Counted from the stretch's first letter, positions 516 to 63,700 are shown. The stretch: 64,000 nt of DNA from Marsupella aquatica (GCA_973895155.1 OZ316895.1:6034687-6098686), one strand, 5' to 3'. Notes: generated by a model not told the origin, from the sequence alone. Numbers and translations: made by a program.

Positions 516-2053
516 ATTATCTCGACCCTACACCAAACACTGATTATTAGTTAGGGGTGTATATTTGCAGAAAAGTGTGAAGCTTACCATAACATCCATT
601 TGGGTCTAAATGTTCTCGACCCTCTACTAAAGAAATAGGGTTTTACTTATAGATACATACTCATAGAAAGGTTAGTCTATTCGGGTCTTAACCCTGTACA
701 AAAAGAATAGTAAGTTAAAGATATACATTCAACAACGGGTTAGAATTATCTGGACCCTCCATTTGGGTCGAGATGATCAGCATATAGATTTTTACATAGT
801 AATTGATATGCATTCAACAACTGGTCAGAACCATCTCGACCCTGTAAAAGTAGGGTTATAATTTTATAACACATCACTTGTTTTCCCGGAGTTCCGTGTT
901 CATGACCCTTGGTTAGAGTGTGTCATTTTTAATGTTATCATTTGAATTTATGGTATTGTCAAACTAATATTGTCTTATTCTATATTTTTATCTGTTTATC
1001 TGTTTATATTTTAATTAATAATATTTATAATTATAACTTAGTTATTTAATAATTTGAGCATTACAATTGTAAATTTAGACTTTGAAAAGTGTACATTTGC
1101 CCACTAAAATGTATGTTTTTGGGGACAATGTTATAGAATTTTGGGGTGTAAAATAATAGATTTGAACGTCAACTTCTAGACTAGAGAAATTCCAGTTTTA
1201 ATGAATAGGGTGATAACTAATATTGTGAACCAAAGCCAGTTCTCCTTGCATTCTTGTTGAAGCATGTAGCCAAAAAGACTACGTTGAGTTGGATAAGGGT
1301 TGCATACAGGGTTGGATACTTCCTATTCTTAATGTGACATGCATCTAAGCTAGTTACATAATCATACTTAGGTTGAGTATAGTTAAGTGACTTCTCTGCT
1401 TGTTGGATGCACAATTAGGCCTTCCGTTAGAGTGTATTTCCGGTTCATCTCTCTTTCTCTGGTTTTTGTCTTTACCCTCACTTTCAATTATGCTTTAATT
1501 AGAAGTTACTCTCTAGAGGCTTCACTCTAGACAACATGCTTTCAACGTAGCTTTCCATCACATATTAGTAGCAGAAGGTCACGAGAAGCACAAGACAATG
1601 TGCATCAATTTACAAGCTGTGATAATATGAGCCTCACCCTTAGTTGACTCTAGTACAATGTACTCTAAAGCTAGGGGCAATTGTCTTGTGACTCCTGGAA
1701 GGCCTTCTGGTCATGGTGCTCATGGCTGAAGCTCCAATAGCAGACAGCTTCCAAACTTTCTGGGCAGGTCTACTTGAGTGCTGGCCAATGAACCAGGTAA
1801 CCATACACTAGTGAGTTAGACTACAGACTTTGGTCTATTGTTCAAGGCAAGGTTCAAAGCTCTTGCTTGACAATGACACACTTGTTTGCATGGTGCTCAA
1901 TTCAGTTGATAAAAATGGCGCACAAGATTACTATGATTGGTCATGGCAGTTTCAAATTGACAATCTGCAATCTGAAAAACCCTACGTACTTCCCAACGTA
2001 CATACAAAAGATTTCAACAACAAACTCTATTGTGTCATAAGATTCATATAAAG

Positions 2054-2085
2054 AACACAATGACGGACCAAACGAGAAGTGTGAC
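2054..2085 (+). repeat. Left terminal inverted repeat
   Basis: Inverted match to 12523-12554 with 2 mismatches, preceded by AAAG. Confidence 0.9.
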
Positions 2086-3148
2086 CACCCTTCTCGTTTT
2101 GCCCGATCGCAAAATCGCGGCTAAGTAAAGAAATCTCCAGTACAAAATGCCCATGAGTGAGAATATTGTTTGTTTTGGAGTCTTGAAAGTGAAGAGCGAT
2201 ACGCGGATCGCTCTTTGCATTGCGCAACCAAACAGTTAAAAAAAATCCACTTGAGACGGTAAACTGCATAAACTGCGCGGTTGACTATGAAACTTAACCC
2301 ATGGTTAATTCTAACTCAACTGTGGTTAACGGAAACTAACCATGGTTAATGGCCAAAACTATATATATGAGTGCCCGGCCGTTCATTTCTCTTTTGGACA
2401 AACACATACCACTTGGTGCTCCCTGATCATTGTTTACCAAGCTGCAAAACTAACCATACAAACCTACATTCGAGTATCAATCGCACGTTTGATACGAGTA
2501 TCGAAGGTTGCATTTGATCCTTATTTTGAACTTGAAATAGGAAAATCGATACCGGTATCGCCTTCTCTATTCCGGTTAGACTTCTTGAGAGGTGTTTTTC
2601 TTTTGCTAGGCCATTTGCGAATGCCCTCGATGATACGCATATCGCAAATTGGATTGCGGACCCAACTTTTGTGTTAGTGGGAAACTTCTGACACCGATAG
2701 CGCCAAACCAATTGAAGATTCACACAGGAAGCTTAGTCTTTTTGCGAGAAGGTACGGGTACCATACTAGGTTTTGATTTTATTTCCATTATAGCGGCCAT
2801 TTGCTAACATTGATCGGTGGTTTCTTAAACAGCTTGTAGAGGCACGAGAAGCATCCGTCACTTTGAAGGTATGGTTACCATAGGATCAATGTCGAGCAAA
2901 CTTATTGGCAAGCCGTATTCATAGGTTGTGTAAGTTCTAGAACATGTATATTTATGAAACCAAGTTATGTAGCCATATGATTTCCAGCTTCAATATGTTT
3001 ACATGTTTGTGGTAAATTCTAGGGTTTGGAGAGAGCGAGACGATACCAGTATCACGGTTGTCATTCGGAAGGCCTACTCCAAAGAGACTGGTATCATAGA
3101 TATCATTAAGTATATTAATCGATTGCACCTACCCTCTAATCCGTAACA

Positions 3149-6100
3149 ATGGCGCCCAGTCAGAGGAGTGGTTCTCAAGATGATGAGAGTTTGATGAGTA
3201 GCCTCTGCTCTTCAATCTGGCAGAATGAGGAGATTTGTGATGAGCAGAAATTCCTGAAGAAGAACTGGCATGTGCGCGACGCTATCAGAATGTTTCCTGA
3301 TAAGGAAATTGACAAACCTTTTTTTTGGGTTCAAATCAAGAAGTCTAAGAAGGTTACCCTTTCATTCGGTCCGGTTGTAGCGTTTGCAGTTTGTGACTAC
3401 GTGAAGGGAAGAGGGAAAGATAAAGAAGCCAAGCAGGCTTTAAATTTCTTGACTATGACGAGGACGAAGCCGTTCACTTCTATTATTCTCGGTGTGGATT
3501 ATTTTGACTTGAAGGCGATGGAAGCACACCCAGAGGATGCAGTTTTCAAGGAGTTGACAGATATTTTCTCTTGCGATTTAAAATTGACCCCTGAATGGTT
3601 TGAGAAATATGTTGTAGATGTGACGAAGTACTGCTGCCACAAGTTCAGGCAGAATACAAGAAGATTTTTGGACAGGATTTCAAAAGACACTAAAATTGAA
3701 AGTCAAGAGAAAGACTGCAGAGGTAAGTGGGAGCTTGACAACACAGGATCAGGTTGACAAAGATCGTGAGGGAGGATCAACCGGTGGAACAAAAGTAGGA
3801 AGTAAAAGTAGAACAGGTGGTCAGCGAAAAGAGACTAGCCAAGGACCGAGTGATGAAGCGGTGAGTGGAGGTGCATCAGGGAGCCACCCGAGAAGGAAGC
3901 GATCCGGTTCTCGTTTGAGTAAAGATGATGACACCATTGGGGAAGTGGAAACCAAAAATTTGAGTGACGTCCAAAAAGGGAGAGACACCACCGCCGCATC
4001 CGAGGGAGCTTTAGAAGTTGAAATGTTTCGACAAGACATTGTAAGTAATGTTTAATCGTTGAATAGTCCAAAGAAAGTGGTTTGATGATTATTTTGGATT
4101 TCAGTACCAATTGCAACATCCGTGAGCTTGTGTTACCTCTTTTGAACATGCGTTATGCGTGACTTTTCAGACAATCAGGTCACTTGTGTTTTGCTATGAA
4201 ATTTATGATACCGGTATCGGTTGAAACATCCCCATTATTGTTTATAAAGCTTTTGTTCCTCTCATGCTTGGAAACCTCATCCTAAGATGTTTTCTATGTA
4301 GGATGGAGACGATCTTACCGCACTTGAAAAGTATGAGACTGATGCCCTGCGCGCAGATCTTTTTGAGTTGATGACGAGTCGTAGAGTACTACGAACTACT
4401 ATTATTTTAAGTGTGAAAAATCTCATTCTTGATGAAGGATCTGATGAATCTACCCTCATCCGCCCGGTGGATCGTTTACATGTGGAGAATATCAAATCTC
4501 TTTTGATCCAAAATCCAACAAATTTTAGCGCACCGTTTGTTCTTCATGTGGACCCAAGTGATTGCCCAACAGTCAAGGATTGGGACCAGTCTAAGTATAT
4601 GAACTGGAAGTATAGAGTGATTGGCGGGAATCATGGTGCCCGGGCGAAGAATGAGTTGTTTGAACAATATGGGAAAAAGATCTTTAGAGAAGTTGAAGCA
4701 TGGGTTTACGCTGGCCTCTCAAAACCTGAGTTTCGAAAATTGGGTTGGCAGCATAACATAGACCAGGAGTACAGGAAGACAATGACAAATACTGATAAAC
4801 TCAGGGCCTGTCATAATTTGTATTTGGAGTTCATGCAAACGAAGAAAAAGGATCTTCGATTTTCTTGTTGCAAGGAGTGTGGCCTTGTGTACAATCCGAA
4901 GGATAGAGAGAGTGTTTCAAAATATGATCCAATGTTTCAAATTGCATTTCGGCACGGAGAAATATGGGATCTTACAGATACAATTTTGACAATGTGGTCA
5001 AAGTTTGAGGTTCTTGGACAGGTGAAGGCGAAGTCTCCTGTAAAGCCTGCTCCTCCCAAGGGCAAAGGGAAATCAAGAGCGAGAGCAAAACCTGTATCCC
5101 AAAAGTTGCACAAACTAGGAGGGGATATCAACTTCTTTCCATTCAGAGCACTTCAAGGTCTTGCAAATGAGGAGCAGCAAAAGCGGTTATTGAGGAGGGT
5201 ATTATCCAAAACTATAAGTCTTGATCAGATGCACCGTGAAGGAGAGCTCTTGAAAAAGCTCTTCAAGATAAGGAAATTGTTTCTCCAAATATCCGGTCAG
5301 CCAGATTGGGCTACATGTCGATTGTTATTTCCTGAAGAAACTCAGGTTTCAGTTCTGACAACGTGGACGGAGAAGTTGAGCGACCAGGTAAAGGAGTTTT
5401 TCATTACTTATATTGTTTTATATAGCTTGAAAGAGAGGAGCGATACCTGTATCTGCTTCTCCATTGAATTATTTGTTATTTTCTTTCATTGTGGGTTCTA
5501 GAGTGGAACCCAATACGGATGTCATTTTTTTTAGATTGAAAAAGGAGATACTGGTATCTACTTCTCCATTGTGGGGTCCTGATTGAATCCCACTACCGGT
5601 ATCATTTTTTGGAGTTTGAAAGAGAGTAGTGATACTGGTATCTGCTTCTTCATTGACTTTTGTGAAGCCTTGCAGCTCAAAGCATACTCCAAAAGGAAAG
5701 TGATACATGTGGAGGAGACCGAGGTTCAGCCGGCAAAGCAGATCAAACTCCCGGCTAAAGACATTCCACATTATTTCCGGAATTTTGTACTTGGAGCGAT
5801 TGAGAAATACAACTGGCAACAGAACATCGCGTCTGTTGAGATTGCTTCAACAGATTACGCCTGGAAGAACGCTGATGGGGATTCTTTCCCTTATTCATTG
5901 CATCTTGGAGATGTTCATCGTTTGGAGGGGTTCTTGAAACCCCAAAATTATACTCTCGCTGTTGCTGATGTACCATATGGTTTTAATGCCCCTGGGTCTG
6001 AGTTTGATGAAGTTCCTTTTTCAGAACAGGATGTCGTCGAGATGGTCACCTCTTTTTCCAAGGTGCCATATTGCCCAAGCTGGAATATGGCAAAAGACAA

Positions 6101-6693
6101 ATATTCATCAACATCCATCTGGCCCAAGATTAGCTTGGGCCTTTGAGAATTGGACCATTGGGTACTACTCGGAGGAAGGAATTCAAAAAAAAGATATGTA
6201 CAATTTTGAGCCAACGGATTCGAGGGTTAACATCATCAGTATCCCTTGTGTCACAACAAAAGCCCTAACACCACTGGGGTTTATTGTTAACCCTTATCAG
6301 AAGCCAGTTGGAGTGTCTGATTGGTTTGTGAATTATTTTAGCAACAAGGGAGATTGGGTGGCAGACTTGTGCTGCGGGACAGGGGCAACTTTGGTTGCGG
6401 CCCTTTTGAATTCTCGCAACGGATGCGCGGTGGATAAGAGCTCTACTCAAATTGAGTATGTCAAAAGTCAAATCATGACTTTGGACTCTGCTTGGAGTCT
6501 ATTTGACAAAGCCTCAATTGTCGGAGATGGAGAAAGCTCTAAGGAGGTTCAACCTCCCATTGGCGATGAGCTAGGTTCAATTGGAACGGATGCTTATGTA
6601 AACGAGTCGCCAAGGGAAGATGAAACTGAAAATGAAGAGCAGCTTCCGCAGATGCCCAACGATGAGGATCTTAATGAAATGTTGTTAGATTAG
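3149..6693 (+). pseudogene. Transposon-borne ParB/Srx-like domain + beta-class N6A/N4C DNA methyltransferase fusion; 3 predicted exons (3149-4040, 4302-5387, 5676-6693), 2 frameshifts
   Basis: Phase-0 GT-AG introns 4041-4301 and 5388-5675 join the ORFs in frame. The ParB-like signature reads IRPVDRLHVENIK...PFVLHVD...YRVIGGNHGARA...AWVY...HN. MTase motifs appear in beta order: LHLGD, catalytic ADVPYG (DVPYG at 5967-5981), IWQK, NPYQKP, then SAM-binding VADLCCGTGATLVAA..RNGCAVD. Frameshifts occur near 3692-3695 and near 6063. Confidence 0.8.
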
Positions 6694-7804
6694 TTAAATA
6701 AAACATTATGTAATATGCCACTCTTAGTTGTCATTATTAGAGCTACATGGGATTTGTACTTAGTAAATATTAAATCTGATACCAGTATCTGGAATATCAT
6801 ATGTAGCTTTATATCAGTATGTACACTTTCCAGATGATAAATACTACTTGCAATACCAGTATTGGAAATCATATTCCAAACGGAGAAGGAATCAAATAGA
6901 ACCCAATTAAACTGCACTTTGGATGTCTATTCTAAACTGATGTGGGACTGTTTTCTATCGAGTGAAATAGTGCGACACTTTCTATGCAACTCAAACTTCA
7001 GTAGTCCATCAAGAAAATTCAGGGTGATTACTAAATGTGAACTTGTGTAAATTGTCTAGACAACTTCTGTGCAATGGATCATTATATCCAAAGCACGGAG
7101 GTTGTCAAGACAGTCTACATGAGTTATGTTCACATTTTTACAAGAGGGCAGTTGGTTTGTTAGTCAACAACCATCAAACTGATGTGTGCAAGGCACAAAA
7201 CAACAAAAAATACAATGGAAACTATAAAATTGATGATGTTTGTACCTCAGATGTTTTTAAACGTCTGAGGTAACTTCATCATCGATGCTATTCAGAGTAT
7301 CATTATGCGATGCAATACTATGAATATGACCCCATTTTGGGTTTGCTCTAAACAGCTCCGAAAGCATACCTTCTCGAGATTGCAAATGCAATATCTAGTC
7401 CATTAATATTCGTGAACTCGATCTTGCATTCAATCTCACGAAGGCAAGCTTTCGGAATGAAGTAACCACATTTAGTGGCTTGAAGGTGGCTTGTTTGTCA
7501 TTTGGTAAGTTATTGTTTCTGTACACGGTTTATATGGCAATCGGTACACAACAAAGCAAGGAGCGATACTGGTATCGTATCTGGTTTTTGTAGTCATCTT
7601 TTTACATGTGTGAGAGATACTAATTTTGCTCGATGGAAATTTATTTTCACTATAAGGTATTGGTACACATTCGACACTGATACGTTTTGGTACACATTCG
7701 ACACTAAAATACATTACCATTCAACAATATGTCCAAAAAAAAGCCGCTTCTTTATAATAAAATACTATTTACGATACCAATATCAATAACCACATTTGTT
7801 ACAA

Positions 7805-10800
7805 CTACAAAATTTCTTCAAGCTGTACATCTAGCATGGCTGCCTGAATAATTCTTCGTGTTTTTGCTGGCAAGGTGTTGTTTGCATTCAAAGAAAAATT
7901 GTAGGCATAAATTGCAGTTTCAGAAAGGCAGATCTCTCCATGCAGAGCTTTGTTTGATGATGCTTCCTTCTCAGGATAATATTTTCCTTCAATTGCTGAC
8001 AGCTCCTCAGAATCCATCGTGTACCATGATACCAATATTGTCAGGCACTTCATCAACCTTGGTCAGTATTTTGGTAACCTTTGCCATCCAAAAAGGCCTC
8101 CCATTTTGATCTGCATGGGCTGCAACACAAGTCATTGAATATTTGTTATTTACTTCAAGAATCTCCTACCTCGGAAATCCTCTTCCGAGCTCCACAGTAC
8201 ATGGCCTTCTCTGGACCTGCAATTTTCTCAATGAGATCAGGTTCAATTGTAGGCGCCCTCCCATCCATCAGGGTCTCTCGATGCTTGTTTGATTTTGGCC
8301 AGACCCAATCAAACATCCACTGTGCTGGCTTGAGGTGATTTTGGATGACATCTTCCTGTTTGTCAAAGAAATTCAGCCACCACAACTTATCCTTGTCGTC
8401 AAAATAATTGAATCCCTCCTCAATCGCTTTCCAATATTTCTCCAATGTTTCTCTTTCTACTTCACCAGTAGCATCTGCTCCGTCCCCTCCATTGGTGCTT
8501 TTCAACGCCATTTGAGGTGCAACCCAGAATGTGGTTGTTGGGATGTAATTCACAAACTCCATGGGATCACCCCAACTTGGGGTTGTTGAAATGTGTTTGG
8601 CATGAAACAAAACTTTTGGAATTCCATTTTCCCCAATCACACGTTTATTTGGAATTGCTTTTGAAAACTGATCTGATGAAGTGGTTGCAAAACATGCCCG
8701 GTTGCCCCAGTCCTGTTGGGTTGATCTTTATCGCTCACAAACTTCCAAAAATCCGCTGTTTCTTCTACAAATATTATCTCAGATTTGGGATTGTACGAAC
8801 CCTGTATAATGTCAACAAGAGTATCCACTCGGAAAGCTTTGCGTTTGTTCAGTTTTGAGGAAAATTTGCTGAACATTTGGTCTATCTGATCATGTGTGTG
8901 GCCAACCAGCAGAAATCCAACCTTGATCTTCTGGAAAACCCCCAACTCTACAAGCATATTTAAGTAAGCAAACAAGAATTTATTCTTGTTCTCCCGAGCA
9001 GTGTTATCCAACTGTAAATATAGCACCGGAGGTAGCACTCCCTCCCAAGTATTCAAAATATTTTGAATAACATGGATTGTAAGGTTAGAGTCATTGTGAA
9101 TATTAGGGTAATTGACATATACCTTGGCCTTCAACTGACCATTGAATATCAAACTGCCCACCACATATAGAGATAAAATATTTCTCATCCATGTTTTTTG
9201 GACATCTGGTGAAGTGCGGTAACTCCGTCTTCATTTGGTCCATCCCATCAATACATATCCGCAAGTACTTTTCTGGGTGCTTGTAACATTTATTCCGGTG
9301 CTTTGCTAATTTCTCCCGCTCGACTCCTTGTGCTGTGCGATGCTTTTTCAACAACATAGCATACTTACCTGAGAAATATCAAATCGGTAACAAAGTTATT
9401 ATAAAAACATTATTGCAACACTAGACTGCTGGTCTATTGGCATTTTGAGGTGTGTGGCAAAAACCATCTTCCAATGCCAAGACCTATAAATTTATAGGTT
9501 TTGGTATTCTAAGCTCAACAACACATCCAATTCCAATCAATATGGATAAAACAAAAACTTACTTTTCTCTGATTCGAGCGTAGCTTTGTCACAGAGAGCT
9601 TTGAATTCTGTGCATGGACCGCAAGTCGAAAAACAACTTCTTTTTGGAATACAAACTCGAGGAAAATGTTGCTTCCATGTCCGACAGAACCAAGAATATG
9701 TAACCCCTTGTTCTTGGCGCAACAGAGTTTCAGTTCGGAAGGCATCAAAGACTTCAGCTTTCGTCCAATTGTCAGGCAAATGAAAAATTTCCTTATTGGG
9801 AAGTCTTTCAACGTTACTCCTAAAAAAATCATTTAACCACTCTATTAAAGTAAGATGAGTGGAGGATTTTTCTCTACAAAATACATTGTTCTCGATACGA
9901 GAGAACATATTTTGGGTTATCCTTTGAAGGCGATTATTTCCAATTGAAAATAATTTCTTAAAACCTTCTCGACAAAAAGAGTTTCCAGACACACTGTACC
10001 CGCATGACCCACTCTGGTTATTCCTAACGCATCCTCTTAGAAGTATATTCTTCTCTCCACGGGTCAGGCCAAAATAATAGGTACGCTCTTTCGTTACTTC
10101 AAGTAAACCGAAAGTCCTCAAACACATATTGTCACAACATGGATACTTGAACACTTCTTTCATTTTTCTCCTCTTTAAATTCTCACTTGTAACAATGTCT
10201 TTCTTGGCTATCCTATCCCTATGTTTCTTACTAGGGACTTTCAGTTTCACCCTATCCTGAAATTCCCTTGTTGAATCATCGCTTCCATGGTCTTCACAAA
10301 CCTCTTCGATGACGTCCTCATTGTCAGTGTTTGGCTCACTGAAAAGGTGGCTATAGCTACTCTGTGGCTCATCGCCTCCATCATCAGCTTCTAAACATTC
10401 TAACACAACTTGTGCAATTACTTCGGACTCTCTATCGTGTACAGAGGCATCTTCCAGACTTTCTTCATCACCAGAATCATCAAAAGATTCAGAACATACA
10501 ATTGGAGTTCTGGGTTCTCTAAACTTGACTTGAACTATTGCATTACGAGAAATACCTACCCTAGGTAACCCATACCTTCTAACTGGAAATCTTGAAATAG
10601 TACCCGTCTGAATTGGCGTTGTCTGTGGACTATTCTCTTTAGGACCATTATCCTCATTTGGACAAGATTCAAAAAGTCTATGCATACACTTTCCTCGAAG
10701 CATTCAAGATTGAGTGGAGATAGGACTTTGGAGTCCCATGAAAGCCACCCTATCAGTGGATGTCCGCCCCAACACTGGCAATGCTCAAGGCAATACGCGT

Positions 10801-11237
10801 ATCGTCTTTGGTATTCGCGACTCCGTTGGCTCTCGAAAAATCCTCCTTTGCACCTGAGAGCTAGTGCTCACTGAATTTCTCGGATCCAATCCTGACGCCG
10901 ATACCTGTATCGTTCTTCGGATTCCTTCTCCATATCCGGGAATATATGGATGGTTTATAACAGCGTCGAGCTCCCAAACCTAGTATTGTAAGTTTCTCTA
11001 TTCCTGGTCGAAGAACACTCAGTAGACGTTGTTTATCTGGCTTACTAGGGGAGACATATAATAAGACCCTATCTCTGGCGCAGAACCACCGTTTGAGTCT
11101 GAACCGGAATCCAAGAGTTCGGGTATGACACGCTGGGACGGGGAAAACTTCTTCAAGATATGAGAAGGTAGAAATCTTGTTTGAACATTAGGAGATGACT
11201 CCACAGAACTCTCTTGGGAATCAGATGTACGAGACAT
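7805..11237 (-). pseudogene. Transposase, Sola-like/DUF7869-type DDD family, frameshifted
   Basis: Segments 9537-10703 (Cys-rich CCDNMC, CREGFKKLF, FSTCGPC), 9103-9357 (ICIDGMDQMKTELPH), 8637-9188 (LYLQLDNTARENKN...FLLVGHTHDQIDQMFS), 8155-8640 and 7805-8056. Predicted intron 9369-9562. Frameshifts near 9185, 8640, 8160 and 8030. The 5' start is uncertain (ATG 11237 is a candidate). Confidence 0.85.
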
Positions 11238-11402
11238 GATGAATCAAAAACTCTATGGCAGTTCACATTCGTCTCTTGAACCTAGTGTTGCAAAGCTTGT
11301 CTCATGAACTTAGGGAAGAGAGATAGGGAGCAGAGAGATCTAGACAGCGGAAATGACTCCCGACCTCTAATGGAATGAAGTCCGATAACTTGAGCGTCCG
11401 CG

Positions 11403-11450
11403 CTTTTATAGTCACTGTGGCGGAAGATTTACGTGGCAATTTTTGATTGG
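11403..11450 (-). promoter_or_regulatory. Candidate TATA box (CTATAAAAG) and CCAAT box for the transposase
   Basis: Minus-strand CTATAAAAG at 11403-11411 and CCAAT at 11446-11450, upstream of ATG 11237. Motif match only. Confidence 0.35.
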
Positions 11451-11573
11451 CTCCCGCTAAGTGGCAAAATAGTCTAGAGTCGGGCCCCCATAATTGGTCC
11501 CTGTATCTGAGTTTGGAATTGATGTTTGAATTTGAGCAACATTTAAATTAAGGTGGTCAAAAAGGTGAATGGC

Positions 11574-11990
11574 AATACCAGTATCGCTGTTTGCATTGGA
11601 GTCATTTAAATGTGATCCTGGAGGACGACAAATACCGGTATTGTTATGTTTATTGGATTGGCATTAAAGGTTGTCGGGAGAAAAAGCTATACCGGTATCG
11701 CGGTCTGTATTGGAGTGGTGTTTACAGGTGGTCAAGGAGGAAGAGAGATACCGGTATCGTGGTCTGTATTGGAGTGGTGTTTACAGGTGGTCAAGAAGGA
11801 AGAGAGATACCGGTATCGCGGTCTATATTGGAGTGGTGTTTACAGGTGGTCAAGGAGGAAGAGCGATACCAGTATCGCGGTCTGTATTGGAGTGGTGTTT
11901 ATAGGTGGTCAAGGAGGAAGAGCGATACCAGTATCACGGACTGTATTTGAGTGAGGATTACAGGTGAACCGGGAGGAAGAGCATCACCAG
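11574..11990 (+). repeat. Subterminal tandem array, 59-bp unit (about 4.5 near-identical units plus degenerate ones), each containing GATACCRGTATC
   Basis: Palindrome cores at 11688, 11747, 11806, 11865 and 11924 give a period of 59. Degenerate units at 11574 and 11631. Confidence 0.95.
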
Positions 11991-12522
11991 TTCGCTAGAG
12001 GAAGGACTAAGAAATGAGTCCGGAACAATTACAAATGGACATTGCCATTTGTATTCTTGTTTCAACGTTGACAATGAAATTTTGCAAACTACGTGGTGAA
12101 CTACGAGGTAACTTCAGCTGACTGTGTGGTGAACTTTGATGTAAAAAAATATTAGAATGTGGTAAATATTTCAAAACCTTCGTTTTATGAAAGAAACGGC
12201 AAACAAAGTTGAATGGAATTCGAGGAGCGATACCGGTATCGGAGTAGTTTTGTTTTCTTGATCTGTTTTCCTTGTAACCAAAAGTTCTATTTTCAAAATC
12301 TAACCAAAATGGAAATATTTCTGGGTTCTATTGTCGCAATGAAAATGTTTGAAGTTAGTGAGGATATTGAAATTCACAATTTGGGATGAAGCCATCATTC
12401 CTCGCGAAGTTGGGAACGATATGAAGTAGTCGGTTTTGCATGATTTTGCAAGAAATGTGTCGCGCACATTGTGAAAATCGGCGAAAATTGATCAAAATTG
12501 AAAACACCCTTCTCCATTAGGC

Positions 12523-12554
12523 GTCACACTTCTTGTTTGGTCCGTCACTGTGTT
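12523..12554 (-). repeat. Right terminal inverted repeat
   Basis: Inverted match to 2054-2085, followed by AAAG. Confidence 0.9.
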
Positions 12555-13180
12555 AAAGTTATTGTGGCATTGGTGGAAGTGGCAGCACACTCCGTCGCTT
12601 GTGTACAAAATGTATCATTTTCCGTGATATACTGTTGTGGTAAAATTAGATAACTGAGCTATAAAACATGCAATCATCTTTTTATCAACATGTGCCCACA
12701 AATAGTACATGATGGTTTACTCTGTCTAGGTTACATCAATGTCGAAGAGATGAGAATTCACTAAATACGAGACTAAATAATATGAACTAACACCATACAT
12801 CTGCTACTCTATGATTTGTGTCAGAGAACCCTTACACAAAGCATCTCATAGAGTGCATATTCCCGTGCATATTATTTAGTGAACTCTCGGCAACTAGCTA
12901 CTCTATGAGTTGATTCTCTTCTCTCTCTCCAATCTTCAAGTCTTGAAGACTCTCTAGTGTGAGCACGATAAAGTGCTCCTCCAGGTTACAGGCTCTCTTC
13001 ACTAAGTAGTCTAACTCCAGCACCCGTTAACCGTGGTTAAGCTGTGCTAATTGAGTAAACCTCACCAGGCACTAGAGTTCAGTCCCACCATATAGATATC
13101 TCTGGCCTTGCAGCTTTGACCTTTTGAATGACTCACTTTGTTCCACTCTACTGGCCATATATGCTACAAAAGTGTTGTTG

Positions 13181-19400: not shown

Positions 19401-21969
19401 TGCTACTTGAGGCCTCCAGGATCCAGCTTGTCCTCTCACAGAATTATTTCGAGAACACTTTTCAGTTGCGTGACGAACGTGAAATCCATTGCCAAGCACT
19501 GAAGCGTTTACGTGCGTTCTGAAAGGATAGGCATGGCGAGGGAACATTAGCACGAAATAATCTTTGCGCTCAGCTCTTATTACTCAGGACGTAGTCAGTG
19601 TTCTAGCCTAGCCTGTGTGACCTGGTGTGTTCGCGGGGAAGCGCCATTGTGTATGTAATTTGTGGAAGCGGAATGTATACAACGTTTTTCAAAGTGGGCT
19701 TACTGTTTTTGTCATGTAAATGTTGCGTTGTTGGTCGCATTTGGGCGCTCCGAATTGAAGTTTATACGTGCAGTGACCTTACGTTGTATTCAGTAACGGT
19801 AATCGTTGCCAGAACTTGCATCTGAGGCGAGCAGAAACGTCGCATTCTCTGAGACTTTCCGTAATAAAATTAACAACCTCAGGATTAGATTGGTCGTACA
19901 TAAGAGTTAACATTTCCTAGTCTTATACTTAAAGAGCATGATCACATGTGACCACGATGATCATTTCCCTTCCCTACTCGTCTCTTAAGAGGCACCCATG
20001 CGTGGGACTACGAATCTGAACCCGGATTAGTCGAGCCCGGATCGTTGTCAAGATAGTAATGAAAACCAAATTACTTGAAAAGGGAGAAGGGCTGTCCAGC
20101 GAGAATTTGAAAAGGGCACTCGGTGACCATGAATGAAAAACCTTTTCTGCTGGTACAACCTTGATACTCGTATCGAACTTTTGAGATACAATTGTTTCTT
20201 TGTCTTGAACCCGATCTCTTGTGTCTTCACTGCTTTTCTATCCACAGAGCCCATGAGTTTCCAATGCGTGCTAGGTTCCCGTGCTACACAGCAGTCGTGG
20301 ATATAGTCGCTTTTAGTTACCTCCCACCAGCTCATCTGCTTTCCCCCGCAAACAGCCGGAGCCGCATGCAATACTGTTATGAAATTGTGATTTGTCCACA
20401 GGAACAGTCGAGTCGGTGGAAGCATGGAACTACTTAATAGTATTCATTGAGAATCAAAAGAAAACGGCTTGGAATTTGGAATTTGGAAAAGAATGTTCCT
20501 CTTATAACAACATGCAACTGTAGATTACTACTTTCACAACGCCGCCAACGTGACCCCTCCATTTGCTTTGATTCGGTGCCGGGTGATGGTTATATTCGGT
20601 GCCGGGTGATGGTTATCGGCTATCGAAGCTTTACATAGTTTAGATGGGAACCACTTTGCCGGCTCCAACGAAGAGAAATTCCGGTCTTGCGGTCGCGTAC
20701 TATTCCTTCGGAGCCAGCATTTCCTCTCCCCAGAAAAAAGAGGAAGCAAAGGATTGGGAAACACACATTCATTCTGGCTACTGTTCTCATTTCGGACGAA
20801 GTCGTGGCATTTCGCCCGGAGAAATTTCAAGGTGGAGCTTGCGCTCTGATCATGGAGATGGTGTCTCGTGGTCTCAGCATGGGTCGCGATCAAAATTCTA
20901 CACCAGAGATACTTCCGAAAAAGAATATGCACACATGTCCTCCCACATGGCCAGGGTTGGCGTGAGTATGGGCCGCGATCAAATTCTGTACTGGAGTCCT
21001 TCACAAGAATATGTACACATGCCCTCGCACATGGTCAGGGTTTAGCTGGCACATATCAAAATCAATACTTGGATACACTCTCTGAAAATAAATTCAAGGT
21101 TGTGTGAAGTCATTTCTAATAAGGAGATTTTATTTTTTATGATAACTTTTCTTTTCAATATCATGCTTAGTTAGAACTTAAAGGAGGTATGTGCTTGATC
21201 AACCTCCAAAATGAAACTTGTTACATGATAGACCCCCTGAGGTCTATGAACGCCCCAGATCTGAGATTGAAAGGTCCATCAACGGTCCAGATTGGGGAAA
21301 AGTATCGAGGGGGTTGATTAAGCAAACTTTTTCCAGAAAGGGGTCTACTAGACATATCCCTTGAACTTAAAGCCCTCATGGACACACACACATTTGGAAA
21401 AAAGCCCGGATGGACCACACACAACCGAGATAGACACAATCCGAACTTCATTTTTTGCTCGTGTAACATGCTTTTTGATTGTAATCCCAAAGTGACCTGT
21501 AAGGAGGTATGTGACCAGGACCAGTCGATATTAGGTTGATTCTTCCGGTAGTCCGTCCACTTTTCCTCCTGCAAGGATGCGGTGACCTTCTAACTCAACC
21601 ATATGGTCTAAAACAAGGTTTCCTTCCGTTAATGAAAGACTGTAATCTGTTTGATAGGTTTAATTGGAGATTCTTCTTACAGTGTCACATGGTTGTGTCC
21701 ATCTTGGTCGTCCCAACAAACTTGTGTCCATGAGGACCGGGATGAGGACTTTAAGTTCTGATTGGTTATCTCTTTAATTTACTTTTTCAATGAGTCAGCT
21801 AATTCTGAATAGCCACAAGAGTCTAATTGCACCAAGATTATCACAGTGAAAATTTTAACGATTTCCATCTCCCTTTGACTCATACAACCCCATACAAGTC
21901 CTGTAGGGCAGGTTCTGGCTTGTGTGCATGATCTGGGGCGTAGTGCATCCGGATTCTCACCTCCCTATG

Positions 21970-55977: not shown

Positions 55978-58900
55978 TTATCGGAGAAGCCCTAAGAACT
56001 TGAGGATAAAGGTATAAACAAATGCTTTTTCCTGAAGCTTATCGAATCTGCAATTATAAGAGAACACCGAATAGCAACTAAGCAATCAGTGCTCAAATTC
56101 AACAGAATAAGTCCCCCGTTCCCCAACCCTGAATACTTTAAACAGCCCAAACAGAAATTGATATCAGTGGGCAAAAAGAATAGTAGTTTAGAAAAACTTC
56201 ACAGGCACAGACCTGCCCGACTTGGAGAAATGGCCAGCACCCATATCACACTTGAAAAGCAGAACATTCTTATCCGTCTTCTTCTCTCGTAACAATGCTG
56301 TGAACTTTGCAGGTTCCCAGTACGCCACTCTTGGATCTGTTCACAAAATCTAGAACTGAGATCTCTAGGGATGCTATTTTTTCTTAAAACCAATTCGTCT
56401 AAAGCTCAAAATATGCTCAATGTACTCTGACAAAGACCTGAATCAGCTCAAAATAAGGGAAAGGAGATCTTGAACCCACCATGGAGACCACCAGTGATTA
56501 ACGTATGTGGATATTGCTGTGCTTTAACCTTGAAAACAACAATCAGTCCAAAGGAATCAATGATCAGCTCAAACTGTAGGATGGTAGGAGTCGTGCGAAA
56601 TTTTGCGATAGTAGTGGTGTGGGGTACTAGAAGCGGTAGAAACTAATTACGGATGGAATGAAACAGACTTGCAAAGATATTTCACCTAAACTCAGGTGAA
56701 ATAAGCTGAGCAATGCGCTTAGCAAGAAAGCAAATTGATGTTTGCATAGTCACTCACGTTGTCCACAGGGGAGTAAGAACGCATGTACTTATAGAACTCC
56801 TCCTTAGCGGGATTACCCCATTCCTGCGTTGAGGAAAGCCAACGATTATCAATGATGCGTGGAAGAACCCATTTTCCAACCCACTTCGTGATGGAATGTT
56901 AACATATGAGCTACAGACAGCGTTTACACCACCATAACTACAAAAAACACCATCCACGCTGCAACGATCATCGATACCAGACGTCTGAAAACGTGATCCG
57001 GAGTTCCAATCTTGAAAGAGTTTTCCAACAAAGCCTGCTCTTCAATATCTTTCCGAATTAGTTCCTATTACTTGATCTTGATTCGGAGTTCCAATCTTGA
57101 AAGAGTTTTCTGACAAAGCCTGCTCTTCATTATCTTTTCACCGATTTCATGCTACCTGATCTCGATCCGGAGTTCCAATCTCGAAGAGTTTTCCAACAAA
57201 GCCTGTTCTTCCTTATTTCCTTCAATTATCTCATATTACTTGAAAAACTATCAGTTGCAAATAGAGCATGTGAGCTTCAATCCCTACTTCACTTGTAGCA
57301 TTAAATGACCATACCTCCCATTCCGCGGTTGTTAAAGGAATGGACGCATCCAGCATTGTTGCCACTACATCAACAAATGCCACCTCAGCAACAGCTGCAG
57401 TGAAAATATCTGGGCGCATTGTCATGACGGCACCAATGAGAAGCCCTCCTGCACTCCGTCCATTTATACAAATCCTGTTCTTCGCCCCAAATTTGTTGTC
57501 TATCAAATACTCCGCGGAGTCGATAAAATCAGTAAAAGTATTCCTCTTGAAAAGGAGTTTGCCATTCTCATACCACTTCCGCCCCATTTCCCCTCCACCT
57601 CGAATGTGGGCAATTGCAAAAACTATCCCTCTGTCCAATAAAGATAGCCTATTTGAGTCGAACTCGGGATCAATGCAGATCTGTGAAGAAAGCACGGTAT
57701 TAAAACTTGTACGCTAAACTTCGTTGTAAATGAAAGACAGCAAATAACGTCAAGATCACTGCAATCTGGTACAGTTTAAGGGCTCCTTACCTCATAAGAA
57801 CCATAGCCGTACAACATCAATGGATCAGTCCCATCTAACTTTACCAGATCTTTCCTGTATACGATGGAAATAGGAATGAGGGTTCCATCCTTCGCTGTTG
57901 CCCATTTCCTGGCAGTCTCATAGTTATGTCTGTCGAAATCTCCAAGGACCTGTGTAATAAAATCTCTTAAGTGTCATGCGACATCTATACTAACGGAGCA
58001 AAAATTATAGAGTAGGAAGCTTTTAACAAGTTTCTACAAAGCCTTAGCAGTGTCGGAATTTCAGTTACTGTCCTTCGCGTACATACGATTCAGAATGACA
58101 AAACTATTTGCTACTAAGTCTTGCACAGTAACTCCATTACTGATCAGGTCATCACTTAGACCCCAGGAACATGAGACACTTCCTTAACGCCGAACGTCCT
58201 TTTAGATCTATAGTGGTATTACTAATGGCGAAATAATGTCCCCCTGTTTTTGTCCAGGTAGAAAACAAATGACAGCTCTAGTGACAAAAGGATAGAAACC
58301 CACCGGATGGATCTTCTTCAAAACTGCCTCCCCTGTATTCATGTCGTAGTCATAGATTGACGAAGGTGTGCTCAATGAACTGTAATTATAGCGAAAAATA
58401 GGTGAGTTGTATTGACTCTGTGTCTGCCATACGCTGTAAGCTGGTTCTGGAAATTGAACTTTTTCGCCGTTACCAAGACTGGTTATTGGCTCACCAATTG
58501 AAGGAAGCTTGTATATGGTCAATGTCACCAGTCCATTCTCCCGCTCCTCAACTATCAAATGGTCAGTAGAGGTCCCGATGGACTGCAACTTCACACTACA
58601 TGGCAAACGAAATGTTAGAAACCAGTCGATCTATAACAAACCATCACAATTTTCTACAATAATGATTATGATGGTAGAGTCAGATAGAGTCAATGATCCA
58701 AAGAAAAGCCTCAGGGGCATAAAGCTGCCGTTAGCTGAAATACTATAAGCTACACACCTTGGCCTATGAGGAAGTAGGGTAGTTGTGGCCGAAGGGTTGT
58801 CCACAGGTGCTACAAGTAGTTCAGAGTTATAGAACTCGTCACTTCTTTTAGTGATGAAGAAGTGATCTCCCCTATGAGCAGCCGCAAAGTCAACACCTTC

Positions 58901-60755
58901 CACTCTCTGGGTCAAGGGCTTAAGCTCTCCGTCCGGGTTTTTCTTGTCCAGAAAAAGGACAAATTGAGTGACTTTGCTGCCAGAATACACCATGAAGTAC
59001 ATGTCACTGTCTGTCGATGATATCTCCAACCAGTGCTCGACGTCTTTCTCATGGTAAAGCAGCTTATCTTCAGACTGTTCTGACCCTACTTTGTGAAGCC
59101 ATACCTGCACAGCCACATAAGAGTGAGATCCAACAAAATATCCTAGGAGATGGGAATGACATCTAGTCGACACTTGACCCAACCCAAACTCCAGAGAAAT
59201 GAATTTGCAAACAAGAATTCCAATTCTACAAACCTTAAATGGCCGCAGAGTTTCATCTTGAGTGACGTAGTATAAAGTGTTGTTGTCGCCCCATTCTACG
59301 TTTTCAGTAGTTCCAATAACTGGACTCCCAACATCTTGTTTGGTTTCTATGTTGACGACGCGATTAGTGTAGATTTCATTTCCTGTGAAATCTTCCGACA
59401 CTGAAAAGAACTTGTGGTCTGGACTAACCTAAAGTAAGAAATTTACAGCCAATAAGAATCCAATAAGAATCCAAACGAATCACGTTGCAGCTAAACAAAA
59501 ATCAAAGTTTCACACAGGACAATCATGAAGTACGACGACAGCACATCAAAATCAAAGAAGGCGATATCAAAAGCGTAATGTCTAGCACACACTGTCGCAT
59601 TGACACTTACCTTCAAGGCTCCAACCATGTAAAATTCATGCTGCGCAGCCACGGCATTTTCATCCAGAAGAATCTCCTCCTCCTGAGCTCCGGCAGTCTC
59701 CATCACTTCCCCCACAGTCCCAGGTCCCTCGCCACCAAGAATTGGACGCCGACAGAAAACTGGATACTGCTTTCCAGTCACATCCTTACAGTAGTAAAAG
59801 TAGGGACCCTTCCTCAACGGCACCGATCTATCATCTTCTTTGATTCTCGCTCGCATTTCTTTGTACAAGTTTGTTTGAAACTCTTTAGTGTCTGCACAGA
59901 CCAGGTACTTCTTAGTCCGTGTCGTCACTTAAAATTTCCTCGCCTGGTAAGAGAATCCGCAAAACTAAAGAGAATTTTCCGCTGATAGGGGGAAACTATA
60001 ATACACAGCCCTAATCAATTTCAACAGATTGTGTGCATCCTGATCATGCTTGACGTTTCTCATTTTAGCCCATTGCAGCTCCAGTGGGAAAAGCATCCGC
60101 AAGGTGACGGAGCATTGTTTTCCGGGTAGGCCAATTCAAAAAAACCAGCCAACTGAACTTTAACATCTCGTGTGCTTCACTACTCTGCTCAACATTTTCC
60201 CCTTTGCCACATTAGAAGCTCGAGTAGTGAGAATGGGCATTCACAATCCGGACCTGCCATGACAGCTTCAGTGTACTCATTCTCGGCTTTCAGGTAAGCC
60301 AAAACCTCCGGATCCTTCCGACTATCATCACGCAGCCAGTAGTAATCATCCTCCTTCACATCTCCAAAATGCTCCGACGTGTGAGGCTTCTTCGTCACCT
60401 GCGGCGGCTCCAAGTCGCCGACGCCCACTGCCATGGCGCTCACCGCTCGGCAACTACTCCTGCTCGCTCTCCCGAAATCACCTAATTCCTCCGAAAGAAA
60501 TTTCACACTCAAGGCTTTGGAATTGTTGTTAGACAGCTTCGGCAGCAGCCAAGAACTCGTGTTGAGGCTCAGAAATGTAGGCCCCCTTGTTGGCGATGTC
60601 CGTGAAAGCAGCTGGGAAGGAACAGCAACCGTGCTATGAAATCGAGGCACTCGAATCCCACATGGCTCGCTACAGAGTGCGGACATGCGCCTGCTCAGAA
60701 ATCCCGAGTGCTGTAGAAGTAAACTTCTCTGCAGGACGTCTTGGAAGTGCTGCAT
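55978..60755 (-). CDS. Oligopeptidase B (protease 2, prolyl oligopeptidase family S9A) with an N-terminal organellar transit peptide; multi-exon
   Basis: DDYYWLRDDSRKDPEVLAYLKAENEY, beta-propeller exons, HIRGGGEMGRKWYENGK, catalytic Ser in GRSAGG, EWGNP...SYSPVDN (56823-56758), catalytic Asp in DPRVAYWEPAKF, catalytic His in GAGHFSKSGR, and terminal exon FDKLQEKAF...LLR* with stop at 55978-55980. Confidence 0.93.
56995..57212. repeat. Intronic tandem repeat, ~85-bp unit x3
   Basis: CGGAGTTCCAATCT..AAGAGTTTTC..ACAAAGCCTG occurs three times within an oligopeptidase B intron. Confidence 0.85.
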
Positions 60756-63700
60756 TGGCGGTCTTTCTCTGCTCGAGGTGGAGGACTGCTGTAGCTCGAG
60801 GTGAGCGGGAAATCGATGAACTCCTCACATCTCACTGCCCAACATCGCCCAAAGCTTCAGATTCAGATTTTCCACAGTGACGAAGCCTCTATATGCATTG
60901 GCACTGCCAGACTAAGCCTCTATATGCATTGGCACTGCCAGAATGATGGATGGGCAAGCGAAAACTTGAATTTGGTTTGGTGCTCTAAATCCTCTAGTGA
61001 CCACCTTCTGGATCATTGGAATGGCAAGAGTTTTGAGATCATATATAGATAGAGTGACTATTGGTTTCTGTTTTAGTTTACTGAGTGGCATTAACTTGAC
61101 TCCATTAACGTGACTAACTTGACTTAGGGTTTGGACCACCTTGTGGATCATTGGAGTGACAAGAGTTTTGAGATCATATTTATAGTGTATTGGTTTATGT
61201 TTTGGTGGACGAAATCGCATTAACTTGACTAACTTGACGTAGATTTAACATGCAGTTTTTCACGGCGCATTAAATCTATGTTGCCCATACAACCAGAACA
61301 TAAACCAAGACACATCTCGTTCAAATCATGTGGTTTTTAGATCATAAATATAGTGTATTGGTTTATGTTTTGGTGTACGGAATGCATTAACTTGATGTAG
61401 ATTTAACACGTAGTAGAGTTCTCCATTGTGTTGCACTAGAGTGGGGCCTAACTATCTTTGGTGGTTTTTTAGGGAAGGGCTCCAAGGCAAAGAGCTAGGA
61501 GGGTATGATGGACACAAATGAATGTATTTGTTTTTACACTTGTGTTCCAAAGATGGAGAAATTAGCTCGGTGACACCCCGCGCTGCAAAAACCAGGTTGG
61601 TGCGGTGCACTTATGGGCTACTTTCTTGGTGGGTCACGATGTCCTTGTGCACTGCGGGCAGTGCTTATAGCCAGCAGTAACAGCATGGTGAGGCGCTCTT
61701 ATGGCCTACCTTCTTGGTGGTATATGAGATTCTTGTGCCGTGCGGGCAGTGCTTATAACCAACAGTGAGTTAGTTAGAAGAGGGAGAGGCCCAAATTGTA
61801 GGAAAGCCTACGTCAATACACTACTGACATTGTTCTACACTATGCAAAACTTAAGTGACACTCACATGTATACACACATAATGTTATGTATGCAAGAGTC
61901 CACAACAATCTTGTGAGATACAAAATGTCATCATGATGTAGTATCAATTGAGCCAACCCCACCCTCTAGCCATGTGGGACTCTCATCATACCATAACAAC
62001 ATGATTGCACAAGACTCTACTAGTGCCAAAGGCTCAACTTGGAAGAATAAAGACTAAATTCTCATTCTCCAAGGTATAACCCCCTTCCTTCATTGACACA
62101 AGACATGATGACCTGGGTGCACACATCACCCCTACTAGGTGACAAGCTACAAAAGGTCACCCTCCCCAACTCGTACATAACAAAGTAATGTAACAAAGTT
62201 GCACCCAATACACACGGGGTGATAGGATCCACAATTGTTGTAGATATATAAAATTTTGGCCTAGGTGAGACCACTCAAGTCATAAACAAGCATGATATCA
62301 GAATAGATTGTATATGCTCTTAACTAGACTCTTAACAACATGGTTGGAATCAAATATTAAATAAATTTACCCCCAATCTATCATTGGGGGGTTTAAAAGA
62401 ACTCAGAGGTTAATACTCTTTTTCTCTAATTTTGAGATGCAATCAAATCCATCCAAATGTGGGAATAGACCAGATATCACTATACATTTGGTAGCACAAT
62501 CTAGCAAAACCATTACCTATCCTAGTCACCTGCTAGTGGGTCCCTCTTTTTGCTGATTACACCATGTTACTTATCAAAAAATTTAGACCACCTCTGAGGT
62601 GGTCTAAAGATTGGACCGTTACATGCATTTATCTTCACTACACCTGACATATTTTGTCTCAGATTTTGGCTCAAGCATTTTAAGTGTAGTGTAGGCAATG
62701 GACTTCATATTGCAAGGGGTGAATATTGACTATTTGTGTCCCTGAGTTCTTGTAAGCCCCCCATTTAGCACAACATAAATGTTTCTGTTTTGTGCGGTGG
62801 AAATTAACTGGGGTTAGCTGTTTTGCATTCAATGGATGTAATCACACCCAGTTCCTTGATCGAAGGGTCTGGGTCTCTGGCCATCAAGGTGACTTTGATC
62901 ACCCTTGGGTCAGTTGATAGAGCATTGGATCTGGTGGTCCCATCCTCAGTACGTGGAGCCTCTGTCCAGGGCCAACCTATTCGTGCACACAGCCTCTGCC
63001 TTTGACATCTTAAGGGCAACCAGAGCTGTCTGATTGCAGGAATGGGTGCAGTGATCAAGCCACTGGATGTGAAGGAGCTAACCCAGGTTACATTTTTTTC
63101 TCCACAAATGACAACAGTGGCACTATGATAAATAAAAATATTAGTGGTAAGGTATATATTATGGCAACAAAGAGTGGCAGCCTAGAAAATAGCAAAAACT
63201 TGGATTTTGTATGATAAATAAGTCCAATGTGGGCACATGCCCTTGGTATGGGAAAGCAATCCAATGTGTGGGAGCATGCAAGACAGTCACAAAGTACATT
63301 GAATGCACTTGCCTTTTTATGCGCATTTACCACAAAGCAACAAGGACCCCTTCTTGCAAAAGGAACTTGCTAGGACCCCTGGTCCATTGCACCCCTTATG
63401 TCACCCCCAAATCCTGGTTTATGGAGGCGTTACAGTATTCATTTTACACAGGGCAAAGTGACAACTCAAGACGGGAGGAGTGAGTGACCCTTTGCAATGG
63501 TGCCCTTCAGAATACTTGGGGCTTCCTTCAAACTTGGGACACACTTCAGATTACTCTAGACTAACTTGCAGCCTGCCGTGAGGAATGGAAGCGATAGTGG
63601 CTTGGTTGCCTGTGCAACACCTTTCTAGTATGAATAAGTCTAAACCAAAATCTAAGGAATTTCCCAAGGATCCAAGTATTGTAGAGTGTAAGTTGGAAAT

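Follow-up and report, generated by a model that had tools for sequence, protein, structure and literature searches.

The stretch of DNA analysed here (the window) comprises 64,000 nt of Marsupella aquatica (GCA_973895155.1, OZ316895.1:6034687-6098686). It carries a gene at 3149-6693 on the plus strand whose predicted product joins a ParB-like domain to a beta-class amino-methyltransferase. This gene lies inside a whole DNA transposon of 10,501 bp, likely of the Sola1 type (2054..12554, +), and shares it with a damaged putative transposase gene on the opposite strand; we refer to it as the accessory gene. The element is delimited by its terminal inverted repeats (TIRs) and by the points at which contigs of other copies diverge. 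The left TIR (2054..2085, +) begins with AACACAATGACGG, and the right TIR occupies 12523..12554 (-); both are 32 nt long, they are 94% complementary and their spacing is 10,437 nt. A target-site duplication (TSD), AAAG, is present at 2050..2053 (read directly) and at 12555..12558 (read on the reverse strand), and this duplication was read at one copy only.

To describe other copies, we compared contigs from eight public sequencing runs (X1 onward) with positions 1500-13100 of the window. Contigs with unrelated flanks diverge exactly before position 2054, with 19, 7, 9, 20, 12 and 16 loose-end contigs in X1 to X6, respectively, and five contigs in X5 diverge right after 12554. A joint of 2306 to 11609/11610 in X2, X3 and X4 marks an element with an internal deletion of 9.3 kb. 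This non-autonomous derivative is about 1.2 kb long and retains both ends together with an array of 59-bp units that bear palindromes. The element is thus found in many copies with different flanks and in a deletion derivative, as a mobile element would be. The ends of the element are covered many times more deeply by contigs than its interior, and full-length copies are therefore probably far outnumbered by short derivatives. Both the ends and the conserved coding patches are also represented, with 85-95% likeness, in runs labelled as three further organisms. None of the contigs of the eight runs showed an empty insertion site, and blastn found no second fragment of the element elsewhere in the 64-kb window.

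The accessory gene starts with the ATG at 3149, ends with the stop codon at 6691-6693 (+) and consists of three exons. Exon 1 (3149..4040, +) encodes an N-terminal beta-rich domain (approximately 3233-3616) and a basic linker rich in Gly and Ser (3684-4040). Intron 1 (4041..4301, +) begins with GT at 4041-4042 and ends with AG at 4300-4301. Exon 2 (4302..5387, +), which contains YRVIGGNHGARA, is intact over 362 codons; it encodes a ParB/Srx-fold domain (approximately 4392-4778), followed by helical parts that resemble a helix-turn-helix (HTH) (approximately 4779-5294) and a basic disordered loop. Intron 2 (5388..5675, +) runs from GT at 5388-5389 to AG at 5674-5675 and, like intron 1, is in phase 0. 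Exon 3 (5676..6693, +) encodes the beta-class N6/N4 DNA methyltransferase domain and an acidic tail. Both intron positions are common to relatives at 50-55% identity. At intron 1, the open reading frames (ORFs) of relatives enter exon 2 via CAG right before an acidic D/E-x-x-D-T-P-L stretch. At intron 2, the ORFs of 10 relatives continue beyond this same boundary and run on into a GTN codon, and the relatives enter exon 3 via CAG just before [LF]-x-x-x-[SG]-KRK. The two phase-0 GT-AG introns of an earlier, sequence-only reading of this locus are therefore borne out by the sequence and by conserved positions, and its order of N-terminal domain, basic linker, ParB-like core, helical region, methyltransferase and acidic tail is upheld. 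That reading also proposed one protein of roughly 1000 residues. Here the fusion itself holds in relatives, for example in one frame as a 690-residue product on a 2,576-nt contig (P0097), but the pieces of the window copy do not form a single open frame.

Three lesions break the window copy. The frame changes twice in exon 1, where one ORF covers 3140-3757 in frame 2 and another covers 3624-4055 in frame 0, and once in exon 3, where an ORF at 5583-6146 in frame 0 is followed by one at 5938-6693 in frame 1. Other copies show what has been lost. After position 3618 they carry an extra T (the whole depth of X4, X5 and X6 and a fraction of that of X1-X3), and after 3681 an extra A (nearly all of the depth in X1-X4), so that the window copy bears a 1-nt deletion at each place. 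Between these two positions frame 1 is open over 3619-3681 and reads ...LLPQVQAEYKKIFGQDF, which is shared with relatives (P0093, and the metagenome contig L005 at 57%). In exon 3, 11 nt at 6066..6076 (+) stand in place of 97 nt in other copies, a net loss of 86 nt that shifts frame 0 to frame 1; the 97-letter version of the joint 6065->6077 occurs in one contig each of X1, X2 and X5. The relatives with an intact exon 3 (P0157, P0158 and the contigs L001, L002 and L003) read SF-x-x-V-TTAPIWRF...KVCNAG-x-EAGIWEK, at the point where SFSKV is followed directly by AGIWQK in the window. The window copy has thus lost about 29 residues of its methylase core, from the region separating motif IV from the GIW-x-K stretch, and has no complete catalytic methylase domain. 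The frames connect once the differences seen in other copies are restored. A mini-intron at 3723-3752 or 6063-6133 was considered as the cause of the frame changes and rejected, since these lengths would leave the frame broken and the contigs of other copies show simple insertions and deletions; neither break can be mended by an intron of plausible length. The gene in the window is a dead, decayed copy, and the intact gene assumed in the sequence-only reading, which missed the frame breaks as well as the TIRs and the transposase gene, is contradicted.

The ParB identity of exon 2 was seen by fold comparison only. The AlphaFold2 model built with 64 relatives has a predicted local distance difference test score (pLDDT) of 89.4 and a predicted template-modelling score of 0.73. 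All of the top 20 Foldseek rows for this model are ParB, Noc, KorB, PadC, pNOB8 ParB or sulfiredoxin; the best row is 7bnr_A with an E value of 8.6e-6, and the probability is 1.00 for ParB, Noc, KorB and PadC. VIA-align gave Z scores from 11.6 to 7.0, with Myxococcus ParB (7bnk_B) at 11.6 and Caulobacter ParB (7bm8_A) at 11.2, the latter with a root-mean-square deviation (RMSD) of 2.2 over 98 residues. The alignments to KorB and pNOB8 ParB continue through the helical part, to residues 320-359 approximately, and the HTH_ParB profile (PF17762) matches the corresponding exon of L003 below threshold (20.0 versus 22.6 bits). Sequence searches found no such match: a search of PDB sequences with the single ParB-like exon returned no ParB. 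The ParB/Srx fold assigned earlier to 4420-4800 thus stands by structure comparison, and fails on the ParBc profile (PF02195), which none of 64 family members matches. The P-motif place at the strand-to-helix turn is occupied by G108-G109-N110-H111-G112-A113-R114-A115 (GGNHGARA, residues 108-115), in which G108 and H111 are invariant in 12 sequences. The P-motif is GERRxRA in ParB and GGCH in sulfiredoxin, and GGNHGARA looks closer to the latter. The altered GxRRxRA patch noted from the sequence is therefore real, with H and G in place of arginines, and the loss of two P-motif arginines makes clamp-like switching by cytidine triphosphate (CTP) doubtful.

The methyltransferase domain was matched by its sequence profile. 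N6_N4_Mtase (PF01555) matches 5938-6690 of the window with 31.6 bits against a cut-off of 26.7, and the same profile gives 31.5-33.8 bits in L001-L003 and 65.7 bits in the Ginkgo protein P0023. In exon 3, motif IV (DVPY, 5967-5978) lies upstream of motif I (DLCCGTG, 6364-6384), which is the beta permutation, and L001-L003 have the same order. The call of a beta-class amino-methyltransferase is supported by these two observations, the profile search having been proposed as its check. The canonical motif IV is (D/S)-P-P-(Y/F); among the relatives it is D-[VIF]-P-[YH], with the first proline replaced. Matches to enzymes of known structure are weak. M.RsrI was found with the methylase part of the window at an E value of 2.6e-4, and an intact relative gave weak and mixed PDB sequence matches, with M.RsrI at 0.13 and N4CMT at 0.19. 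Judged by the D-x-P-Y motif alone, the product in intact copies is likely N6-methyladenine (6mA), with N4-methylcytosine (4mC) as the alternative. Two echinoderm-type relatives, P0151 and P0097, retain the GGCH form of the P-motif and have a degenerate motif IV (DMPQDW, DMPKEW); catalysis may have been lost in some lineages of this kind.

The N-terminal domain (3149-3616) weakly resembles the SANTA and RFTS chromatin-targeting modules, a resemblance that we treat as a lead and not as a finding. The model of the N-terminal 156 residues was built from five sequences only and has a pLDDT of 65.6, with a core of approximately 75-85. The first four Foldseek rows are three DNMT1 RFTS domains and DIM-2, with E values of 0.085-0.18. 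In the unfiltered VIA comparison the SANTA domain of M18BP1 comes first (Z 6.9, RMSD 2.8, 86 residues), followed by DNMT1 RFTS (Z 4.5 and 4.0) and MET1 (Z 3.5), with a floor near 3. The relatives in L001, L003 and L005 match exon 1 at 34-36%.

The element is also marked by a palindrome, GATACnnGTATC. Of its 16 copies in the window, 15 belong to the element and a single one to the remaining 53.5 kb. The copies in the element (2491..12240) start at 2491, 2548, 3042, 4207, 5442, 5547, 5631, 6778, 7565, 10900, 11747, 11806, 11865, 11924 and 12229. They are situated upstream of the accessory gene, in both of its introns (4207 in intron 1; 5442, 5547 and 5631 in intron 2), behind the gene, between the two genes, upstream of the transposase gene and in the 59-bp array; none of the 15 falls in an exon or in a transposase ORF. 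In 200 shuffles of the element, the largest count of any such palindrome was 3, and the stricter form GATACYRGTATC has 12 matches against 0 expected. The array (11618..11981) has a period of 59 bp and five units with one palindrome each, and it is kept in the deletion derivative. The copy outside the element, at 20163-20174 (GATACTCGTATC), has no blastn similarity to the element nearby and may be due to chance.

Inverted repeats of different sequence sit in the same kinds of place in relatives. The strict motif GATACYRGTATC is absent from all seven metagenome contigs that hold relatives (L001-L007). Instead, GAGACnnGTCTC occurs seven times in L001 and five times in L002, GAGACGGGTATC three times in L005, CATGAnnTCATG five times in L006 and CATGCTAGCATG three times in L007. 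L003 (208-4845) carries 15 copies of CCGAT-N6-ATCGG, all non-coding, so that the spacing of the half-sites as well as their sequence differs between lineages. In the shuffle test L003 and L005 showed no enrichment for palindromes of the 5-nn-5 form, L003 having the 5-N6-5 form instead, and L004 is too short for palindrome enrichment to be judged. In frames that run into the introns of relatives, the motif is translated as IPVS or DTGI. The site differs from lineage to lineage and yet remains an inverted repeat, which points to a reader that is dimeric and encoded by the element, either the ParB-like protein or the transposase. A homodimer prediction for the ParB-like exon scored 0.28 (mark 0.32).

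We read the locus as a decayed copy of an accessory gene in a 10.5-kb likely Sola1 transposon, the intact copies of which would likely mark their own element, and we give this reading a probability of about 0.8. In intact copies, the ParB-like/HTH part would bind the GATACnnGTATC sites of its own element, which are spread across promoters, introns, untranslated regions and the subterminal array, probably as a dimer. This binding would carry the fused methylase to the DNA of the element, which it would then mark, likely with 6mA as the D-x-P-Y motif suggests, or alternatively with 4mC. Such a mark might shield the element from silencing by the host, or might time transposase expression or transposition; this last step is speculation. 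A bolder version, which we hold only tentatively and at well under even odds, is that the ParB-HTH-methylase of each lineage, with its SANTA/RFTS-like module, recognizes its own parS-like palindrome and deposits 6mA or 4mC solely on the element. If true, this would be a self-addressed epigenetic mark of a eukaryotic transposon in which site and reader co-evolve, and host enzymes such as the 4mC methylase of liverwort sperm could be tamed descendants of the family.

Several observations weigh against self-marking by a Sola1 element. For the ParB-like part, PF02195 is found in none of the 64 family members at E<=0.01 and not at E<=1 in the window exon, a PDB sequence search with the profile of the 64 relatives returned no ParB, and the two phosphate-binding arginines of GERRxRA are H and G in the window protein. 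For the methylase part, the window, like L001-L003, matches no more of PF01555 than the final third of the profile, motif IV is DVPY and not the canonical DPPY, and motif IV is degenerate in some relatives (DMPQDW in Holothuria). No spliced joint was found among the contigs of the eight runs, and conservation is the one line of evidence that suggests splicing and expression of the accessory gene. The palindrome array is retained in the deletion derivative, and a cis site of the transposase would explain this no worse than a ParB site. Finally, the Sola1 label rests on shared features, the transposase having been matched to PF25273 only, and the AAAG duplication does not fit the AWWT preference of insect Sola1 elements (PMC3845634).

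These points bear on what else the palindromes and the protein could be. The palindromes could be binding sites that the transposase needs in cis, the ParB-like methylase acting elsewhere or independently of these sites, for example on DNA of the host or generally on transposon DNA during replication. DNA transposons often have subterminal repeats to which their transposase binds, neither the ends nor the 59-bp array were lost in the 9.3-kb deletion derivative, and the end bins are far deeper in contigs than the interior, all of which suits this explanation. It accounts less well for palindromes in the deep interior of the element, within the two introns and in the space that separates the genes (4207, 5442, 5547, 5631, 6778 and 7565), an unusual placement for transposase sites that recurs in L001-L003. 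Palindromic repeats scattered over a replicon are, moreover, the usual targets of the ParB/KorB family, which is the best structural match here. We regard transposase sites as possible, with perhaps one chance in three or somewhat less. A different doubt concerns catalysis: the methylase-like domain may no longer be a DNA methylase, being inactive or acting on RNA or protein, so that the protein would be only a DNA-binding regulator of the element. Motif IV does deviate (DVPY in the window, DIPH in Ginkgo, DMPQ and DMPK in echinoderm-type rows), and the Pfam scores barely exceed the cut-off. Set against this, D-[VI]-P-Y-G-F and DLCCGTGS/AT are kept in the clade of the window, among relatives that are 50-60% identical and have long open frames. 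This conservation of both catalytic motifs argues for selection on the catalytic site and makes loss of DNA methylation an improbable general explanation.

The other two explanations concern the status of the window gene itself. The frame breaks might be assembly errors in an intact and functional copy. Two of the three lesions are 1-nt differences, one of them in a run of A (3678-3681) as is typical of long-read errors, and contigs drop rare variants, so that the window's own version is not checkable in them. The replacement of 97 nt by 11 nt is, however, not an error of that kind, and the neighbouring transposase gene likewise departs from its counterparts in other copies, with gaps of 1 nt (8643) and 8 nt (8159); we consider assembly errors very unlikely. 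Hardly tenable in turn is the biological part of the sequence-only reading, in which a ParB-methylase of bacterial or phage origin entered a plant genome in a single transfer, acquired introns and is now employed by the host as an epigenetic enzyme of the N4CMT/DN4MT1 kind. The introns are present, and the separate, supported clades of Chara, of fern and Ginkgo, and of Riccia fit a long residence in streptophytes. Co-option by the host is contradicted by the position of the gene, which lies between the inverted repeats of a multi-copy element and beside a transposase gene. The window copy is moreover broken in three places, its frame is not intact, and the family is multi-copy in Ginkgo, Chara, Riccia and Adiantum and is found in invertebrates and an amoebozoan as well. 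Motif IV also differs from that of a host enzyme, with DVPY in the window and TSPPY in MpDN4MT1. In short, the earlier domain reading is right and its biological reading is wrong.

The distribution of relatives likewise marks the gene as a transposon accessory gene, of a family that is widespread and multi-copy in streptophytes and invertebrates, as opposed to a gene co-opted by the host. Scanned in full with exon 2, 1.84 billion representatives yielded 156 related proteins at E<=1e-3. PF01555 follows the ParB-like part in 7 of 30 long relatives, and in 8 members of the 64-row alignment. A search for longer relatives by shared words returned none, and a search of NCBIfam gave nothing useful. 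Named members come from Chara braunii (at least 9), Riccia sorocarpa (3), Adiantum nelumboides (3) and Ginkgo (5 products), from the invertebrates Holothuria (sea cucumber), Ptychodera (acorn worm), Branchiostoma (amphioxus) and Actinia (sea anemone), and from a Trinity transcript of the amoebozoan Clastostelium. In the metagenome contigs L001, L003 and L005 the order is an N-terminal exon, an intron, a ParB-like exon, an intron and a methylase exon of about 376 codons with an acidic tail; the ParB-like exons of L001 and of L006 each contain one in-frame stop. A midpoint-rooted tree was calculated for 32 ParB-like regions, one row of 33 having been left out for fewer than 150 aligned residues. 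The window falls in a well-supported clade with rows from Logan and from metagenomes, Chara, fern with Ginkgo, and Riccia form separate supported clades, and the animal and amoebozoan rows lie across the midpoint root on a weakly supported backbone. The nearest named relatives are consistent with a plant origin of the window. A search that started from the Ginkgo methylase domain and was aimed at prokaryotic proteins bearing ParBc brought up nothing beyond paralogues in Ginkgo and a small number of remote methylases that lack ParBc. Literature searches gave no description of the gene family in land plants.

The putative transposase gene (8155..10703, -) is damaged and is represented by ORF pieces at 9537-10703, 9103-9378, 8637-9230 and 8155-8727. 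The piece at 8637-9230 (-) matches DUF7869 (PF25273) with a Pfam E value of 9.2e-48, and the nearest Atlas clusters of the transposase are all eukaryotic DUF7869 proteins. When the DUF7869 piece was compared with PDB sequences, no row rose above chance level, and a Pfam search of the other pieces gave no match. Relative to other copies, the window gene lacks a T after 8643 and 8 nt after 8159. The pieces also overlap in different frames at 9103-9230 (-), and contigs of X6 and X7 break off at 9173; here the transposase gene either bears another lesion or contains an intron. In L002, a convergent, downstream match to the C-terminus of the window transposase (tblastn, 39%, E value 2.6e-14) shows the same layout of accessory and transposase genes as in the window. 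With regard to its class, the element is likely a cut-and-paste DNA transposon of the Sola1 superfamily. Sola1 elements make 4-bp duplications, with a preference for AWWT in insects (PMC3845634). The window element has 32-nt TIRs and AAAG on both sides, and its termini are of the AAC...GTT form, as in Sola1-1_Ec32 (AACCG..CGGTT). The flank consensus of the other copies is A/T-rich with low agreement. The only clear host gene among the window ORFs of at least 120 residues is a prolyl oligopeptidase, whose exons (Peptidase_S9_N and Peptidase_S9) lie at 57231-60824 (-).

With the assignment to a transposon, the tempting idea that a plant had co-opted a rare bacterial methylase falls away. The gene now joins a recently recognized class, that of DNA transposons with their own ParB-like DNA binder and DNA methylase, and the family is not confined to algae, being multi-copy in Chara, liverwort, fern and Ginkgo and present in several invertebrates. 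As the standard ParB profile misses the family, surveys based on PF02195 would not count it. Intact members could be a source of eukaryotic 6mA or 4mC writers that are addressed by sequence.

Among known systems, the closest structural matches to the ParB-like domain are KorB of RK2 and chromosomal ParB and Noc (8qa9, 7bnk, 7bm8 and 7ng0; Z 9.3-11.6). The window protein differs from these in having no detectable sequence similarity to them, no GERRxRA and no ParA partner, and in carrying a fused methylase. The same pair of domains is found on mobile elements of prokaryotes. A survey of the ParB-CTPase fold that used a PF02195 search describes fusions to N6_N4 methylases mainly in phages, with sulfiredoxin as the main eukaryotic form (PMC12704722). 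These phage and prophage fusions are prokaryotic, intron-free and detected by PF02195, whereas the window family is missed by that profile, is without the two P-motif arginines, and has an added N-terminal domain of eukaryotic type and a linker. A phage or prophage fusion of this kind is probably the distant source of the core of the window gene.

Beta-class, bacterial-type amino-methyltransferases are also encoded in eukaryotic nuclear genomes by host genes, namely bdelloid N4CMT (PMC8885841) and Marchantia MpDN4MT1a/b (10.1101/2021.02.12.428880), for which 4mC activity was shown. The window gene shares this class and bacterial type with them; it is a transposon gene with D-x-P-Y, whereas N4CMT and DN4MT1 are host genes with (T)SPPY. 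MpDN4MT1 has TSPPY, and a ParB domain is not mentioned in the accessible portion of its description (10.1101/2021.02.12.428880). Retrotransposons that bear DNMT (PMC5890265) or Dam-type methylases resemble the window element in carrying their own DNA methyltransferase; they differ from it in being retroelements and in having C5 or alpha-class Dam domains. The retrotransposons termed DAM-LTRs are stated to be absent from Streptophyta and Metazoa (10.64898/2026.05.21.726589), two groups in which the window family occurs.

Two DNA transposon systems of algae come nearer. In Plavaka elements of the red alga Bostrychia, PAG2 combines an N6-adenine methylase domain with SET, and PAG3 has an N-terminal ParB domain and a 2OG oxygenase; tandem inverted-repeat arrays adjoin the PAG3 gene and were proposed as PAG3 binding sites (10.1101/2025.02.11.637652). 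These are accessory proteins of transposons with a methylase or ParB domain and with inverted-repeat arrays, as in the window element, but they belong to a Plavaka/CACTA-like superfamily and ParB is not fused to the methylase. Sola1-1_Ec32 of Ectocarpus is 21.5 kb long, with AACCG..CGGTT termini and a 4-bp TSD, and encodes, on the strand opposite the transposase, a protein of 1,104 residues in which a ParB-like domain is combined with a 4mC/6mA methyltransferase domain (PMC12477816). Its authors, who cite Iyer et al. 2011 (for green algae) and Petroll et al. 2025, suggested that the accessory protein binds and modifies its own transposon (PMC12477816). The 4-bp TSD, the AAC termini, a ParB-like methylase gene opposite the transposase and, probably, the Sola1 type are shared with the window element; the brown-alga host and the length of 21.5 kb are not. 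The two accessory genes are likened here by description and not by sequence, and the portion of the paper that describes Ec32 does not mention palindromes or introns. The palindromes in the introns of the window element provide a concrete, testable handle on this published idea of self-binding and self-marking, and the window gene belongs to a kind of transposon accessory gene first described in algae.

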